In this document: one piece after another, positions 1,194-5,150 of the stretch
Layout of the letters: every line of letters begins with the position of its first letter
How positions within the stretch are numbered: position 1 is the first letter of the stretch
From: a virus
Lineage: Duplodnaviria; Heunggongvirae; Uroviricota; Caudoviricetes
Reading direction: 5' to 3' (one strand)
DNA: 14,432 nt
IMG/VR virus record: IMGVR_UViG_651053020_000002
Notes under the pieces: generated by a model
Seen by the model: only the letters and a program-made list of their open reading frames with translations
The model's database searches: none
What the model was told of the DNA's origin: nothing
Translations under genes and position numbers: made by a program

Positions 1194-2131
1194 GCTTTAC
1201 TAAAATTCATCGTCAATGTATTGGCTTTAACCTGCGCTCCGCGCTCTGCTTGTGAAGTTGAACGAAAAAAATGCACTAAGTATGCACTGACTGCATAGTC
1301 ACGGCAGCGGGCTACTACATCGCGTAAACTCCAGTTAATCGCATTGAGGCGAAGAGAAAGAGGAATTGCGATTTTGCTCCCGGTCTTTTCCTGAATGACA
1401 TGAAGATGATCATCCCAAATATCGCTAAATTTCATACGCGAAATATCACCTAACCGCTGACCAGTAACCAGCGCTAACAGCATGGCATTTCCCATGTAAC
1501 GATGAGTAGCGTCTGCGATATCGAAGATTTTTTTCCATTCTTCAAGGCTCAGCCGTTGTCGGGTAATTTTTCTTCTTGGTTGTTTAGTGGCTAATGCTGG
1601 GTTATAGCCAGGAGGTACTTCTCCGTAGTGCTGCGCCTCTTTGAAAACATCAATCAGGACGGAGCGAACTACTTGTGCCATTCTTGGCCGCCCAGCGGCG
1701 ATATACTCATCAAGCAATTGTGCTATATCTCTGACATCAACGGCTGAGATCAACTTCATTCCTGCTCGTTCTCTGAGCAAGGATACTGGTTTAGCTTTTT
1801 GTTTATAGGTGTTGAGTCTTATATCACCACTTTTAAGCCTGTCATCCTGGATCGCTTGATAGCGATCTAACCAGGTTGACGTTGTGATAGCCTTTCCTTT
1901 GCTGGTTGCGATCCTGTCACTGATAGCCAGAATCTGCCGGGTTCTTTGTTCAGCCAGGCGAGTGTTGGCCTCAGTGGCAATAGCGATAGCTTCAGCTTCG
2001 TTTGTTCCCAAAGCATGGAATTTTCCTGTCACTGGATGCTTATACCGCCAATAGACTTTATTTACCTTCCTACTATAAAGCGGATATAAGTTAGGGACTG
2101 AAACATTATTCTTACGCGGTCTGGCTGCCAT
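1194..2131 (-). pseudogene. intE: Prophage tyrosine integrase (lambda Int family), C-terminally truncated by the IS3 insertion; the ORF reads ~10 codons into IS3 before a stop at 1160
   Basis: Minus-strand ORF 1160..2131 begins MAARPRKNNVSVPNLYPL... and aligns with lambda Int through the conserved Arg (..LVTGQRLGDISRMKFSDI..) and Lys (..EKTGSKIAIP..) boxes, but the region that would carry the H-x-x-R and catalytic Tyr is replaced by IS3-derived codons. Confidence 0.85.
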
Positions 2132-2357
2132 TACTCAAAATCCGTTGCAAAAGTAATGAGTCATTTTTCTTGATTACAGGTGTTACCAACTCCCCAACTA
2201 ACTCGGCGTCCTCACGCACTCGCCATAACCGGCCTTGTTTCATGGCCGGTGGACAAAATAAATTCTGCTTAGCATAACGACGCAATGTGGACACACTTGG
2301 AGGATTACTTCTGTATTTTTCAGCAGCCCATTCTTCAAGAGTTAACATTTGAAGCAT
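2112..2357 (-). CDS. xisE: Excisionase (lambda Xis-like winged-helix protein)
   Basis: 81-aa ORF MLQMLTLEEWAAEKYRSNPPSVSTLRRYAKQNLFCPPAMKQGRLWRV... resembles lambda Xis (..LTLQEWNARQ.. pattern); overlaps integrase start by 20 nt, typical xis-int arrangement. Confidence 0.8.
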   Translation of the reverse strand: MLQMLTLEEWAAEKYRSNPPSVSTLRRYAKQNLFCPPAMKQGRLWRVREDAELVGELVTPVIKKNDSLLLQRILSNGSQTA

Positions 2358-2430
2358 ATGCGATCACCTTATTACTACACTAACTGCTTAGTCTCAGCAT
2401 ATCGACCCTGCACGGTCGGTTAGTTTCTCC

Positions 2431-2519
2431 ACAAAACAGAGAAGAGCACCTGTGGCCACAGCTATCAGGATGGGTCGGGTTATTAACCCGTCATCCGGGG
2501 ATACTCTTCTCTGTTTTGT
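2431..2519. repeat. Perfect 16-bp inverted repeat (ACAAAACAGAGAAGAG at 2431-2446 / CTCTTCTCTGTTTTGT at 2504-2519) enclosing inner palindromes (CTGTGGCCACAG 2451-2462; GGGTTATTAACCC about 2476-2488)
   Basis: Read directly from the sequence; the arms are exact reverse complements. Confidence 0.6.
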
Positions 2520-2525
2520 AAAAAG

Positions 2526-2565
2526 GGCGGTACCAGAAAGGACTAAGGAAAAAACTGGTACCGCC
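2526..2565 (-). terminator. Candidate rho-independent terminator for a leftward (minus-strand) transcript: perfect 11-bp GC-rich stem (GGCGGTACCAG / CTGGTACCGCC) with 18-nt loop, followed on the minus strand by CTTTTTAC
   Basis: Stem arms at 2526-2536 and 2555-2565 are exact reverse complements; a T-run follows on the minus strand (plus-strand 2519-2525 GTAAAAAG). Confidence 0.4.
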
Positions 2566-2821
2566 AAGACTACACACAGCATAAAGTTGTGGTGTCGGGT
2601 GCCCCCGGTGCCTGGCGAAGGTTGCACACCAGGCGGGTGGGTATCCACAGAAGGTCGATTGTCAGCCTCAACCTTAACCCGCGTGCGCTGAGCCGCATTC
2701 ACCACAACGCTAAGGATTCTCTCTGGTTGAAAATACTTAGCTGTTATGTGCCTGTCTTTTCACCACTTCAGGCTCGGTGGTATGCTGGAGTTCTCACACA
2801 GCCAGCAAGCAAGGAAACTTA

Positions 2822-3163
2822 ATGAACCAGTTTTATGTTCACGTTCGTCTATTTGAAGACACAGCCGAACAGACCAAAAAATTTGAAGAATTAATGCTTA
2901 ACTTTCTGTACCAGAAAACAGTTAAAGAGTCTGACGATAGCTGCTGCAGACTGATTCCAGAGGGATATATCCTCAAAAGTACAATGAACTGCCAACAAAT
3001 CCTTGATCAAACATTTTCAATTGCTAACAGTGCCGGTGTTGACGCAAATATATTTGTCTGTAAATTTGAACAAAGCGCATGCTTACTTCCGTCTGCTTCC
3101 TTAGTTGGTAACGATTTCGTTCATTACGATCTTACGCCTAAGCCCATCAAGCTCGATTCTTAA
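2822..3163 (+). CDS. ymfI: Uncharacterised prophage protein (113 aa), opposite in orientation to the flanking leftward genes
   Basis: ORF 2777..3163 with probable start at ATG 2822 (MNQFYVHVRLF...), preceded by GGAAACTT; size and position match my recollection of e14 ymfI; no recognisable domain. Confidence 0.6.
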   Translation: MNQFYVHVRLFEDTAEQTKKFEELMLNFLYQKTVKESDDSCCRLIPEGYILKSTMNCQQILDQTFSIANSAGVDANIFVCKFEQSACLLPSASLVGNDFVHYDLTPKPIKLDS

Positions 3164-4580: not shown

Positions 4581-5150
4581 ATGAGGCTAATCGTGGGTAA
4601 GCATCACTGGAAAATAGAAAAACAGCCTGAGTGGTACGTGAAAGCTGTCAGAAAAACTATCGCGGCGTTGCCGAGTGGTTACGCTGAAGCGGCTGACTGG
4701 CTCGATGTAACAGAAAACGCTTTATTCAACCGCCTTCGTGCAGATGGCGATCAGATTTTCCCGCTGGGATGGGCAATGGTTTTACAGCGTGCTGGTGGCA
4801 CTCACTTCATTGCTGATGCTGTGGCGCAGTCTGCAAATGGCGTCTTTGTGTCTCTTCCTGACGTCGAGGATGTGGACAACGCCGATATTAACCAGCGTCT
4901 GCTGGAAGTCATTGAACAGATCGGCAGTTATTCAAAACAGATTCGTTCAGCAATCGAAGACGGTGTAGTGGAACCGCATGAGAAGACAGCAATTAACGAC
5001 GAGCTGTATCTCTCAATTTCGAAGCTGCAGGAGCATGCAGCACTTGTCTACAAAATTTTTTGCATTTCAGAAAGTAATGACGCCCGCGAGTGTGCAGCTC
5101 CGGGCGTCGTGGCGTCGATTGCTTCTGGTTGTGGAGAAACTAACGCATGA
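4581..5150 (+). CDS. ymfL: Prophage CII/YdaT-like putative regulator (start uncertain: ATG 4581 or GTG 4593, which has a GAGG 6 nt upstream)
   Basis: 189-aa ORF immediately downstream of the Cro-like gene, the position a CII analogue occupies in lambdoid phages. Confidence 0.7.

Follow-up and report, generated by a model that had tools for sequence, protein, structure and literature searches.

The closest described relatives of the RNA considered here head early prophage operons. In Qin, DicF (Rfam RF00039) is followed by an STnc100-like domain and dicB, and in Rac a DicF-like element is followed by an STnc100-like domain and kilR, the Rac RNA having already been named KilS. DicF, an RNA of roughly 50–60 nt whose seed pairs with ftsZ mRNA, blocking cell division, is reportedly shaped by RNase III and RNase E. 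At the late promoter PR' of Stx phages a promoter-proximal terminator is said to give rise to the small RNA StxS in the lysogen, read-through expressing the operon, and the 6S RNA of phage lambda is a terminated leader transcript which doubles as an sRNA. Canonical STnc100 (STnc100/PasD, RF02076) lies in the late region, with Q, stx, an esterase gene and holin-lysozyme genes. The Pas genes have been reported to be absent from K-12 (Zhu, Shabalina and Storz 2026 preprint).

The window, that is the whole 14,432-nucleotide (14.4-kb) stretch of DNA that was analysed, is prophage e14 of E. coli K-12, and the gap between xisE and ymfI is 100% identical to that of MG1655. With a probability of roughly 0.7, the inverted repeats of this gap are best explained as RNA structures in a minus-strand leader of about 460 nt, which runs leftward from about position 2817 toward xisE-intE and is subject to layered RNA control.

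Inverted repeats of the xisE-ymfI gap

A repeat finder returned a perfect 16-bp inverted repeat (arms 2431–2446 and 2504–2519, each 16 nt, 100% complementary, 57 nt apart) and a perfect 11-bp repeat (arms 2526–2536 and 2555–2565, each 11 nt, 100% complementary, 18 nt apart), both of which had been described in the sequence-only reading. The two inner palindromes that it had mentioned were also recovered, as CTGTGGCCACAG at 2450–2461 and GGATG..CGGGTT-ATT-AACCCG..CATCC at about 2466–2498, and, read on the minus strand, CTTTTTAC follows the 11-bp hairpin. Apart from the 16- and 11-bp repeats, no perfect inverted repeat in the whole window reaches 11 bp with a 3–100-nt loop. Among 40 dinucleotide-preserving shuffles the longest repeat was 13 bp (mean longest 10.2 bp), 16 bp was reached in none, and repeats of 11 bp or more averaged 0.3 in number. 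The repeats are real and lie well beyond chance expectation.

Folding z-scores on the minus strand were -7.3 for 2423–2519 and -6.8 for 2516–2582; for 2385–2800 they were -9.1 on the minus strand versus -4.6 on the plus strand. The region of the 16-bp repeat and its junction, described below, was matched in 2,159 of 5,426 complete E. coli genomes. Assignment to a REP, ERIC or MITE repeat class was rejected, there being a median of one place per genome (maximum four), always in prophage context.

The leader transcript and its small RNA

The leftward leader transcript starts with ECS171 (2750–2817, minus strand), a 68-nt short RNA with a CCACC..GUGG hairpin, which is listed with matching sequence at U00096.2 1200648<-1200715 (Shinhara 2011, Additional file 4). 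Published Term-seq data place a strong 3' end at 1201423(-), window position 2748, in all three growth conditions, and the filter rule of Adams et al. for these data implies a mapped transcription start site upstream of it. The start site of the leader is drawn from the 2011 read cluster and this indirect filter logic. A simple promoter scan returned no consensus leftward promoter, the leader promoter being weak by consensus, and the supplements of Cappable-seq, SMRT-Cappable-seq and Rend-seq studies contained no entry for this locus. The end at 2748 is the dominant 3' end of the leader, so that little RNA reaches the terminator at 2520 in uninduced cells. The genes ymfH, xisE and intE are induced by AZT in a LexA-dependent manner; xisE (2112–2357, minus strand; MG1655 annotation) is the first gene downstream of the leader and is followed by intE.

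The 11-bp hairpin had been taken for an intrinsic terminator of a leftward transcript, and this was borne out by a Term-seq 3' end at U00096.3 1201195(-), which is window position 2520 and the last U. The terminator (2520–2565, minus strand; -24.2 kcal/mol) comprises the 11-bp stem (2565–2555/2536–2526), an unusually long loop of 18 nt and the run CUUUUU at 2525–2520. It was missed by the simple promoter and terminator scan because the loop exceeds the limit of 8 nt used there. Of the three Term-seq conditions a single one called the 2520 end, and its score there is modest; the Rho and intrinsic-terminator scores of Adams et al. cover LB 0.4 alone, where this end was uncalled. A GC stem with 5–7 U follows the same plan in 29 of 29 diverse relatives, the stem sequences differing. 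In the relatives L061/L098 the stem shows a compensatory change from A-U to G-C, with G-U wobbles on the minus strand only. The terminator loop is expanded in some genera; a leader peptide (Shine-Dalgarno with ATG/GTG) within such loops, and a small uORF after GGAGAAAC, were rejected for want of conservation across relatives.

An E-value search with the Rfam DicF model (RF00039) gave a full-length match of 28.5 bits (E=3.7e-4), below the gathering cut-off of 48; true DicF scores 76.7 bits. In this match the DicF 5' seed region aligns with a single-stranded linker, (A)UGCUGUGUGUAGUCUU (2566–2582, minus strand), which is conserved in sequence from E. coli to Klebsiella, Citrobacter, Mixta and Buttiauxella and is a candidate sRNA seed. 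A Term-seq 3' end at 1201257(-), window position 2582 (Rho 'No', intrinsic-terminator score 1.45), marks a processing site just upstream of the linker. On the 3'-end data alone, the ends at 2582 and 2520 would delimit a species of about 62 nt. A scan with the linker seed across the window produced no convincing target.

Ahead of the linker lies an STnc100-like multi-hairpin domain (2586–2738, minus strand), closed by a helix of GUUGUGGUG (2708–2700) and CACCACAAC (2594–2586). The Rfam STnc100 model (RF02076) matched over its full length (1–206) in an E-value search with 29.2 bits (E=1.8e-4), below the gathering cut-off of 47, and relatives scored 44.1 (L002, a close relative), 43.8, 38.8 and 35 bits. 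The alignment covers all helices, including the closing helix (repeat I10 of the repeat finder), the internal hairpins and the 3' terminator. The STnc100-like domains of Qin and Rac have different closing-helix sequences. Neither the window nor HK022 gave any Rfam match at gathering thresholds; the leads to STnc100 and DicF came solely from the E-value mode.

The sequence-only reading had named a structured small RNA made leftward from this part of the gap as one possibility, and the Rfam matches, ECS171 and the 'ymfH' entries of Hfq RIL-seq all agree with such an RNA from 2566–2817. The entries comprise 81 and 117 chimeric fragments with 3 and 4 partners, 'ymfH' being always second in the chimera (SIC scores 0.667 and 0.75), and its RIL-seq sRNA score of 0.113 adjoins that of dicF (0.103). 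The RNA recorded as 'ymfH' behaves like an Hfq-bound sRNA in RIL-seq; a Northern blot for it was not found in the literature. The e14 RNA is an unannotated DicF/STnc100-like small RNA with its own terminator, situated upstream of the junction.

By homolog comparison, the 103-codon ORF 'ymfH' (2394–2705, minus strand), suspected from the outset of being non-coding, is an annotation artefact over this structured RNA. Each of the 40 homologs listed, from a set of 44 unique ones, differs in length by 2 to 9 nt and is broken by one or more in-frame stops, mostly near codon 75; the three codon positions show 442/490/519 substitutions, without third-position excess, and one relative's copy is marked as frameshifted by RefSeq. 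That the region codes for a protein YmfH, the repeats being incidental, is scarcely conceivable on these data, although RefSeq annotates ymfH as a CDS and a ymfH clone set off a retron toxin in a screen. That clone also makes the structured RNA, in sense orientation, and half of the relatives retain merely a 175-nt hairpin module. K-12 'ymfH' is a false gene over a multi-part regulatory RNA, and its correction adds an Hfq-associated small RNA of the DicF/STnc100 type to the best-studied bacterial genome.

A three-way junction upstream of xisE

The 16-bp repeat is separate from the terminated small RNA and belongs to an element downstream of the terminator, a point which the sequence-only reading did not make. 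It forms the core of a 19–20-bp stem carrying two arms, in a three-way-junction RNA at 2423–2519 of the minus strand (fold -43.2 kcal/mol). The long stem pairs a 5' arm at 2519–2500 with a 3' arm at 2450–2431; arm 1 occupies 2498–2466, with its apex loop at 2486–2480, and arm 2 occupies 2461–2450. Between the junction and the xisE ribosome-binding site lies a small hairpin, CGACC/GGUCG (2401–2420, minus strand), whose place is taken in relatives by other GC hairpins (GGCGG..CCGCC, GCCCC..GGGGC).

The junction is conserved across Enterobacterales prophages, with compensatory changes. In an alignment of 29 sequences, 93.3% of the cells were paired, against 38–54% in slid controls; 10 pairs showed compensatory changes and the covariation score was reached in none of 500 shuffles. 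Pair 19-97 is U-G in 27 of the 29 sequences, and G-U occurs at pairs 3-113 and 16-100, all of which would be A-C mismatches on the other strand. A covariance model (R1) scored 91 bits on the minus strand versus 31 bits on the plus strand. The element always stands directly upstream of the first early-left gene, whichever gene that is, and in Mixta it immediately adjoins the promoter and operators. It is an RNA motif covered by no Rfam family and widespread in Enterobacterales prophages.

These data bear directly on whether the repeats act as DNA, be it as an operator or protein-binding cluster, a cruciform or an att-like recombination site controlling xis/int. The nearness of xis and int, the perfect palindromes in K-12 and a YhaJ site reported near the predicted intE-xisE-ymfH promoter, though located elsewhere, would suit such a site, which is nevertheless very improbable given the wobbles and compensatory double changes in relatives, the 60-bit strand asymmetry of the covariance model, the transcript 3' end at the U-run, and an element that is intact within integrated prophages and far from int in most relatives. 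That the helices stay paired, by compensatory changes and by G-U wobbles present solely on the minus strand, points to RNA, and both repeats work as minus-strand (leftward) RNA rather than as DNA sites. The leftward terminator, the small RNA and the non-coding ORF of the sequence-only reading have stood, while its protein-binding or recombination site has not been supported. An attP or tRNA-gene-like integration site was rejected on the same features (intact in integrated prophages, mostly far from int, strand-specific wobbles). A boxA/nut-like reading of the 3' arm (UGCUCUU) was also discarded, this motif being buried in the 20-bp helix and reading UGUUCUU in the commonest E. coli class.

Several roles may be considered for the junction as RNA. 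It is possible, though we hold it rather unlikely, that it serves mainly as an RNase III processing or stability element, the helix of about 20 bp being cut so that the small RNA upstream comes apart from the xis-int mRNA and the half-life of that mRNA is set, as at the lambda N-leader and sib sites and in DicF maturation. The near-perfect stem of 19–20 bp, about two turns, its central mismatch at pair 11-105 in 19 of 29 sequences, like RNase III sites cut in a single strand, and its place between sRNA and mRNA are consistent with cleavage. Against this, the Term-seq lists are without a 3' or 5' end inside 2423–2519, though there is little RNA there in uninduced cells, and sequence is invariant throughout the arm-1 apex and at many stem positions, which a simple site for a cutter of double-stranded RNA would not need. 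An unlikely role is that the junction or the STnc100-like domain might be a cis antiterminator RNA resembling put of HK022, allowing read-through of early-left terminators in N-less lambdoids. No N gene is annotated between repressor and left operon in SfV, ST64B, e14 and phiSTEC1575; the element heads a long early operon close to the promoter, which it abuts in Mixta, and a mechanism of this kind for N-less lambdoids has been suggested by others. However, model R1 found no match in the HK022 immunity region, inspection of the putL region showed no similarity and Rfam holds no such family; moreover, the junction is downstream of the sole terminator mapped here and so cannot act on that terminator.

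The apex of arm 1 raises a further question. In 27 of the 29 aligned relatives it contains the 14-mer CGGGCUCAUAACCC, identical to nucleotides 28–41 of tRNAfMet, whose sequence was checked in 5,425 genomes. The 14-mer lies there inside an unchanged motif, ACGGGCUCAU(A/U)ACCCAAUCC; since 19 of these 27 rows were fetched by that very motif, part of its invariance is built into the sampling. Ahead of holin/endolysin genes in Raoultella and Pantoea this apex is borne by unrelated stems, as it also is in an Acidobacteriaceae MAG. In K-12 the apex is degenerate, being CGGGUUAAUAACCCG with the loop UUAAUAA, and is not identical to the tRNAfMet anticodon stem-loop; ARAGORN found no tRNA cloverleaf, either in the window or where relatives carry the apex motif. 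From its resemblance to the anticodon stem-loop of the initiator tRNA, the apex might functionally mimic that stem-loop and engage a partner that binds tRNAfMet. Candidates would be MetRS, the 30S P site together with IF3, or a nuclease of anticodon loops such as VapC, the apex then serving as a decoy. The 14-nt identity and its recurrence on unrelated stems favour mimicry, yet we find it quite doubtful, the identity having been noticed post hoc and most relatives fetched with the motif itself, and the K-12 loop indicating that the motif is dispensable for whatever e14 still does. A literature search for such an apex found nothing.

A broader proposal, also tentative and on balance unlikely, would make the junction an undescribed class of phage leader RNA which engages a tRNAfMet-recognising partner and whose flank may be gated in trans by an RNA of the ECS003 family (see below). 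If so, contact with the 30S P site and IF3 would set or block initiation on the first early-left or lysis gene, alternative partners being MetRS or a host toxin-antitoxin anticodon-loop nuclease decoyed by the apex, and the early-left operon of N-less lambdoid prophages would possess an RNA-only layer of control. In most members the invariant arm tip consists of three G-C pairs and the loop CUCAUAA. The exact copy of the initiator-tRNA anticodon arm in most junction members invites direct biochemical tests.

ECS003 and comparison with known RNA systems

ECS003 (5076–5149, minus strand) is an RNA of about 74 nt, antisense to the 3' end of ymfL and the ribosome-binding site of ymfM; its sequence and coordinates have been published, along with a Northern band near 70 nt (Shinhara 2011). 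It is abundant, with a Term-seq 3' end at 1203751(-), window position 5076 (scores 1.4e7–5e7), and was seen in Hfq RIL-seq as ymfL.AS. Nucleotides 6–21 of ECS003 are complementary at 16 of 16 positions to UUGUGGAGAAACUAAC (2419–2434, minus strand), which consists of the last 4 nt of the long stem and 12 nt of flank. In a 26-nt seed scan of the whole window no other trans site paired as stably with the ECS003 5' end (-28.2 kcal/mol here versus a background of -8.3 +/- 3.5), full-length RNAduplex having given meaningless extended duplexes. Across 101 loci (32 unique combinations), a locus's own pair averaged 13.2 nt of pairing versus 8.2 nt (maximum 10) for cross-allele swaps, showing that the pairing of the ECS003 5' end with the 3' base of the junction co-varies in relatives. 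The commonest E. coli class, with GGAGAAACCAAC, has a perfect run of just 11–12 nt. From this complementarity we propose ECS003 as a trans partner of 2419–2434. The shared 16-mer could alternatively stem from a common protein or ribosome site.

Taken together, the preferred reading of a leftward leader RNA gives the following 5' to 3' order: a short hairpin RNA ending mostly at 2748; the STnc100-like multi-hairpin domain (2738–2586); the conserved single-stranded stretch, cut at 2582; the DicF-like GC hairpin, which is the 11-bp repeat, with a U-run ending transcription at 2520; the three-way junction (2519–2423), whose 19–20-bp stem holds the 16-bp repeat; and the small hairpin, followed by the xisE ribosome-binding site. 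In the lysogen, weak leftward transcription would be stopped mostly at 2748 and 2520, leaving xis and int silent and yielding Hfq-associated small RNAs in a long STnc100-like form and a DicF-like form of about 62 nt, the latter with a free 5' seed. Upon SOS induction more polymerase would read through into the junction and xisE-intE. The junction would act as a cis-acting leader module of N-less lambdoid early-left operons, and the constitutive antisense RNA ECS003, with the 3' base of the junction as its trans target and the ymfM start covered in cis, would damp leaky expression of the left operon. This suggests how xis/int and toxic early genes could be kept silent in N-less lambdoid prophages, with stacked terminators as one proposed layer and a constitutive antisense RNA with one cis and one trans target as the other.

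In its antisense arm this arrangement recalls lambda OOP, for ECS003 likewise overlaps, in antisense, a cII-like gene (ymfL) at its end and the gene after it at its start. It also recalls P1/P7 C4 and P4 CI, since ECS003 has a second complementary site in another leader. It differs from these and from P22 Sar in that the e14 trans site lies in the opposite early operon, beside a three-way junction; there is no sequence homology to any of them, and regulation by ECS003 is read from complementarity and its co-variation. The likeness to HK022 put is that of a two-armed structured RNA heading early operons in a lambdoid phage without N, put being V-shaped and about 70 nt, whereas the e14 element is a three-way junction of 97–124 nt. 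StxS and lambda 6S RNA offer an analogy without sequence relation, the e14 operon being early-left rather than late and having, to our knowledge, no known antiterminator protein. With STnc100/PasD the e14 RNA shares a full-length alignment, the closing helix, the GGUGAAU...CACCGGGaGGCACCCGgCACCA blocks and an end at a terminator, but its STnc100-like domain is located in an early-left leader upstream of xis rather than in the late region. DicF, KilS and the e14 RNA are alike in being cut from, or ended within, an early prophage operon transcript ahead of the next genes, in possessing a free 5' stretch, a GGCGGUAnCAG...CUG..CCGCC hairpin and a U-run, and in their association with Hfq in RIL-seq. 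The e14 seed is unrelated to that of DicF and the e14 loop is longer, and the STnc100-like domain precedes the hairpin in e14 but follows DicF or its counterpart in Qin and Rac. A DicF-like hairpin and an STnc100-like domain are thus common to the early-operon heads of Qin, Rac and e14, to which the three-way junction is an addition in e14 and its relatives.

The inverted repeats and their conserved strand

The window is 100% identical to MG1655 and represents the cryptic prophage e14 of E. coli K-12. Between xisE (2112–2357, minus strand) and ymfI (plus strand, from about 2822), the annotated ORF 'ymfH' (2394–2705, minus) overlies two inverted repeats. Both were reproduced by a repeat finder as perfect, with 16/16 positions complementary in 2431–2446/2504–2519 and 11/11 in 2526–2536/2555–2565. 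The 14.4-kb window has no other perfect inverted repeat of 11 bp or more with a loop of 3–100 nt; in 40 dinucleotide-preserving shuffles the longest was ≤13 bp.

The 103-codon ORF had looked non-coding from the sequence alone, and comparison with 44 unique full-length homologs bears this out. Among the 40 of these listed with length and stop details, all differ in length from the K-12 ORF by 2–9 nt, and the reading frame is therefore lost; in-frame stops interrupt every one of them at least once, mostly near codon 75. The three codon positions carry similar numbers of substitutions (442/490/519), RefSeq marks the copy of one relative as frameshifted, and many relatives retain just a 175-nt hairpin module (window 2393–2567). 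An over-expression clone of 'ymfH' reportedly triggers the RcaT toxin of retron-Sen2 (bioRxiv 10.1101/2020.06.22.160242); since the ORF is non-coding, the structured RNA, expressed in sense, may be the triggering agent.

The region is matched in 2,159 of 5,426 complete E. coli genomes, and is found in phages SfV, SfII, SfIV, ST64B, mEp460, cdtI, Stx2c phages, and Klebsiella and Citrobacter phages. When one genome was scanned per species, about 20 Enterobacterales genera proved to carry it. In silico folding of 2385–2800 favoured the minus strand (z = -9.1) versus the plus strand (z = -4.6); a leftward structured RNA had been among the possibilities suggested. The repeats are conserved in relatives in that the helices still pair, via compensatory double changes and G-U wobbles, the latter being A-C mismatches if read on the opposite strand. 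Because of these compensatory changes and strand-specific wobbles, the selected feature is neither a DNA palindrome, cruciform or operator (a protein-binding cluster had also been considered in the sequence-only reading) nor a plus-strand RNA.

The three-way junction

The 16-bp repeat is part of the 20-bp stem of a conserved three-way junction (2423–2519), in which arm 1 has a 7-bp outer helix and a GGG/CCC tip, and arm 2 a 4-bp base with a variable top. The structure was specified by us and then tested on an alignment of 29 diverse sequences (A2). Paired cells amounted to 93.3%, versus 38–54% in slid controls, changes on both sides were seen at 10 pairs, and the covariation score was 0.190 versus 0.095 in shuffles (reached by 0/500). 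RNAalifold independently gave an essentially identical fold. With a covariance model of the junction derived from A2, the window scored 91 bits on the minus versus 31 bits on the plus strand; elsewhere in the window, and in HK022 and Rac-like phages, the model gave no hit. Rfam holds no family covering the junction, and no earlier description was found in the literature searched; it appears to be undescribed.

The arm 1 motif ACGGGCUCAU(A/U)ACCCAAUCC is unchanged in 27 of the 29 aligned sequences, the alignment including 19 rows fetched by that motif. Its core, CGGGCUCAUAACCC, equals nt 28–41 of E. coli initiator tRNA (three G-C pairs plus the anticodon loop), the tRNA sequence having been checked against 5,425 genomes. 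The identity was recognised after the fact, ARAGORN found no tRNA at the tip sites, and the tip is degenerate in K-12 (loop UUAAUAA); the apparent likeness is a lead, not a result. The tRNAfMet-like tip ACGGGCUCAUAACCCAAUC was also seen on unrelated pairing stems at three further loci fetched by the tip motif: ahead of holin/endolysin genes in prophages of Raoultella (L143, 3023–3098) and Pantoea (L154, 4878–4972), and upstream of an ORF in an Acidobacteriaceae MAG (L142, 2544–2628). It may be an RNA motif of wider occurrence.

Across the prophage leaders examined, the junction has the repressor gene on its upstream side and is directly followed by the first early-left gene, be it xis, yfdP, sb37 or another; in Mixta the promoter and operators adjoin it, with no sRNA/terminator module between. 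A put-like antiterminator is one candidate for the molecular role of the junction, and no N gene is annotated in the left operons of the junction-carrying prophages examined. An RNase III or stability element is another, as is control based on tRNA mimicry, the arm 1 tip being the feature concerned.

Transcript ends in the leader and predicted pairing with ECS003

The 11-bp hairpin had been proposed as a leftward intrinsic terminator, and the evidence supports a working terminator that ends a small RNA: CUUUUU follows directly on the minus strand, with a Term-seq 3' end on the last U. Adams et al. 2021 mapped three minus-strand 3' ends in the region, which were converted using the printed flanking sequences (window coordinate = U00096.3 coordinate minus 1,198,675). 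The end on the last U (1201195, window 2520) occurred in one growth condition only, probably M63. That at 1201257 (window 2582; LB 0.4) follows ...CACCACAACUUUA and precedes UGCUGUG; since it is scored Rho 'No' with an intrinsic score of 1.45, it is probably a processing site. The strongest, 1201423 (window 2748), lies past the hairpin CCACC..GUGG and was present in all three conditions. A GC hairpin with 5–7 U is found at the place equivalent to the 11-bp repeat in 29/29 diverse relatives, with differing stem sequences.

The terminator loop is expanded in several genera (related loci L125 2620–2670, L127 2610–2680, L131, L137 and L140) by an insertion, ...CUUCC..AGGAGGAAG..GAUAAUGUUCUG..., which includes a Shine-Dalgarno-like sequence. 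In most of these, not Klebsiella L127, ATG or GTG follows and the frame so opened would cross the 3' half of the stem. Such a layout is attenuation-like; E. coli and Citrobacter phiNP do not share it.

At gathering thresholds Rfam gave no match. In Rfam E-value mode the full STnc100 model scored 29.2 bits against 2517–2738 minus (cut-off 47, E = 1.8e-4), rising to 44.1 bits in close relatives, and the full DicF model 28.5 bits against 2525–2578 minus (cut-off 48, E = 3.7e-4). A RIL-seq-based table (Bar et al. 2021) lists 'ymfH' with 81 chimeric fragments and 3 partners in exponential phase, and 117 fragments and 4 partners in a second data set, always as the second RNA; its sRNA score is 0.113 (adjoining dicF, 0.103), and the main text does not discuss it. 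Together, terminator and small RNA form a sub-threshold variant of prophage sRNA families already known, new both in itself and in its genomic setting.

Upstream lies ECS171, a 68-nt minus-strand RNA at 2817–2750 (Shinhara et al. 2011), in agreement with the 3' end at 2748. Independently of ECS171, a mapped TSS somewhere within 2768–3101 follows from the filtering rule that Adams et al. applied; a promoter scan found no consensus match for the leader. Transcription read-through into xis-int takes place. The ECS171 hairpin CCACCGAGCCUGAAGUGGUG, followed by AAAAGACAGGCAC, is conserved, and in Enterobacter (L132) and Mixta (L140) this motif comes directly before seed and terminator, the STnc100-like body being absent; ECS171 as a promoter-proximal stop or pause is a possibility. 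In SfV (L159, 3908–3940 and 4523–4547) two putative rho-independent terminators were annotated by its authors between cI and the leader, and the early-left leader of this phage group thus seems to hold several stacked terminators.

Among the strongest Term-seq ends of the region is one antisense to ymfL (1203751 minus, window 5076; scores 1.4e7 to 5e7). It marks the end of an already known RNA, ECS003 (5149–5076, minus), which lies antisense to the 3' end of ymfL and to the ribosome-binding site of ymfM, in a position resembling that of lambda OOP. Of the cis-antisense candidates of Shinhara et al. 2011 it was the most abundant, and their Northern blot showed a band of about 70 nt; the RNA appears in Hfq RIL-seq as ymfL.AS and has no Rfam entry. 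Its nt 6–21 (GUUAGUUUCUCCACAA) are perfectly complementary to leader 2434–2419 (UUGUGGAGAAACUAAC), a stretch made up of the final 4 nt of the long stem and 12 nt of flank. The ECS003 5' end has no better site than this one on either strand of the window (-28.2 kcal/mol, background -8.3 ± 3.5), bar its cis target, the ymfM ribosome-binding site.

In relatives of several genera ECS003-like genes, with conserved promoter region and hairpin GACGCCCGGAGCUGCACACUCGCGGGCGUC, lie 2–3 kb upstream of the leader on the same strand; such homologs were seen in Enterobacter, Erwinia, Pseudocitrobacter and Klebsiella. When each leader was compared with its own sRNA at 101 loci (32 unique combinations), the longest stretch of complementarity averaged 13.2 nt; across the two leader alleles it was 8.2 nt on average (maximum 10). 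For UGUGUAUGGAGAAA-type leaders, three of four combinations match CCAUACAC seeds over 13–15 nt; in the fourth, from Klebsiella (L156, UGUGUACGGAGAAAU), there is one mismatch, and the match is perfect over just 8 nt. No earlier description of the ECS003-leader pairing was found in the literature searched, and it appears undescribed. On this complementarity, ECS003 may be a putative regulator of xis/int. Two loci with leader GGAGAAACCAAC (L043, L101) carry on the same strand a second 16-nt perfect complement, UUGGUUUCUCCACAAA, at a different, more distant site about 6.1–6.9 kb upstream of the leader, which suggests a putative second antisense partner locus in such prophages.

Proposed mechanism and related prophage leaders

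Most likely, the repeats would be the central part of a leftward leader of about 460 nt, in which stacked stops at 2748 and 2520 would hold xis/int silent in the lysogen, with Hfq-bound small RNAs of the DicF/STnc100/KilS kind as a further product. On SOS induction, transcription would pass the stops and proceed through the three-way junction into xisE-intE, and ECS003 would be able to pair at the junction base.

DicF-like and STnc100-like modules are common to e14 and other K-12-type prophages, but in opposite order. In Qin, true DicF (76.7 bits) is immediately followed by an STnc100-like domain (38.8 bits) and dicB; in a Qin-type dicB operon (L160, 2502–2728) that domain reaches the dicB start. 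In Rac-like phages a DicF-like element (41 bits) and an STnc100-like domain (44 bits) precede kilR, as in Rac-SA53 (L129, 2298–2531), the Rac RNA having already been named KilS. Being present before both dicB and kilR, the predicted STnc100-like fold is thus a recurrent leader element ahead of prophage cell-division inhibitor genes.
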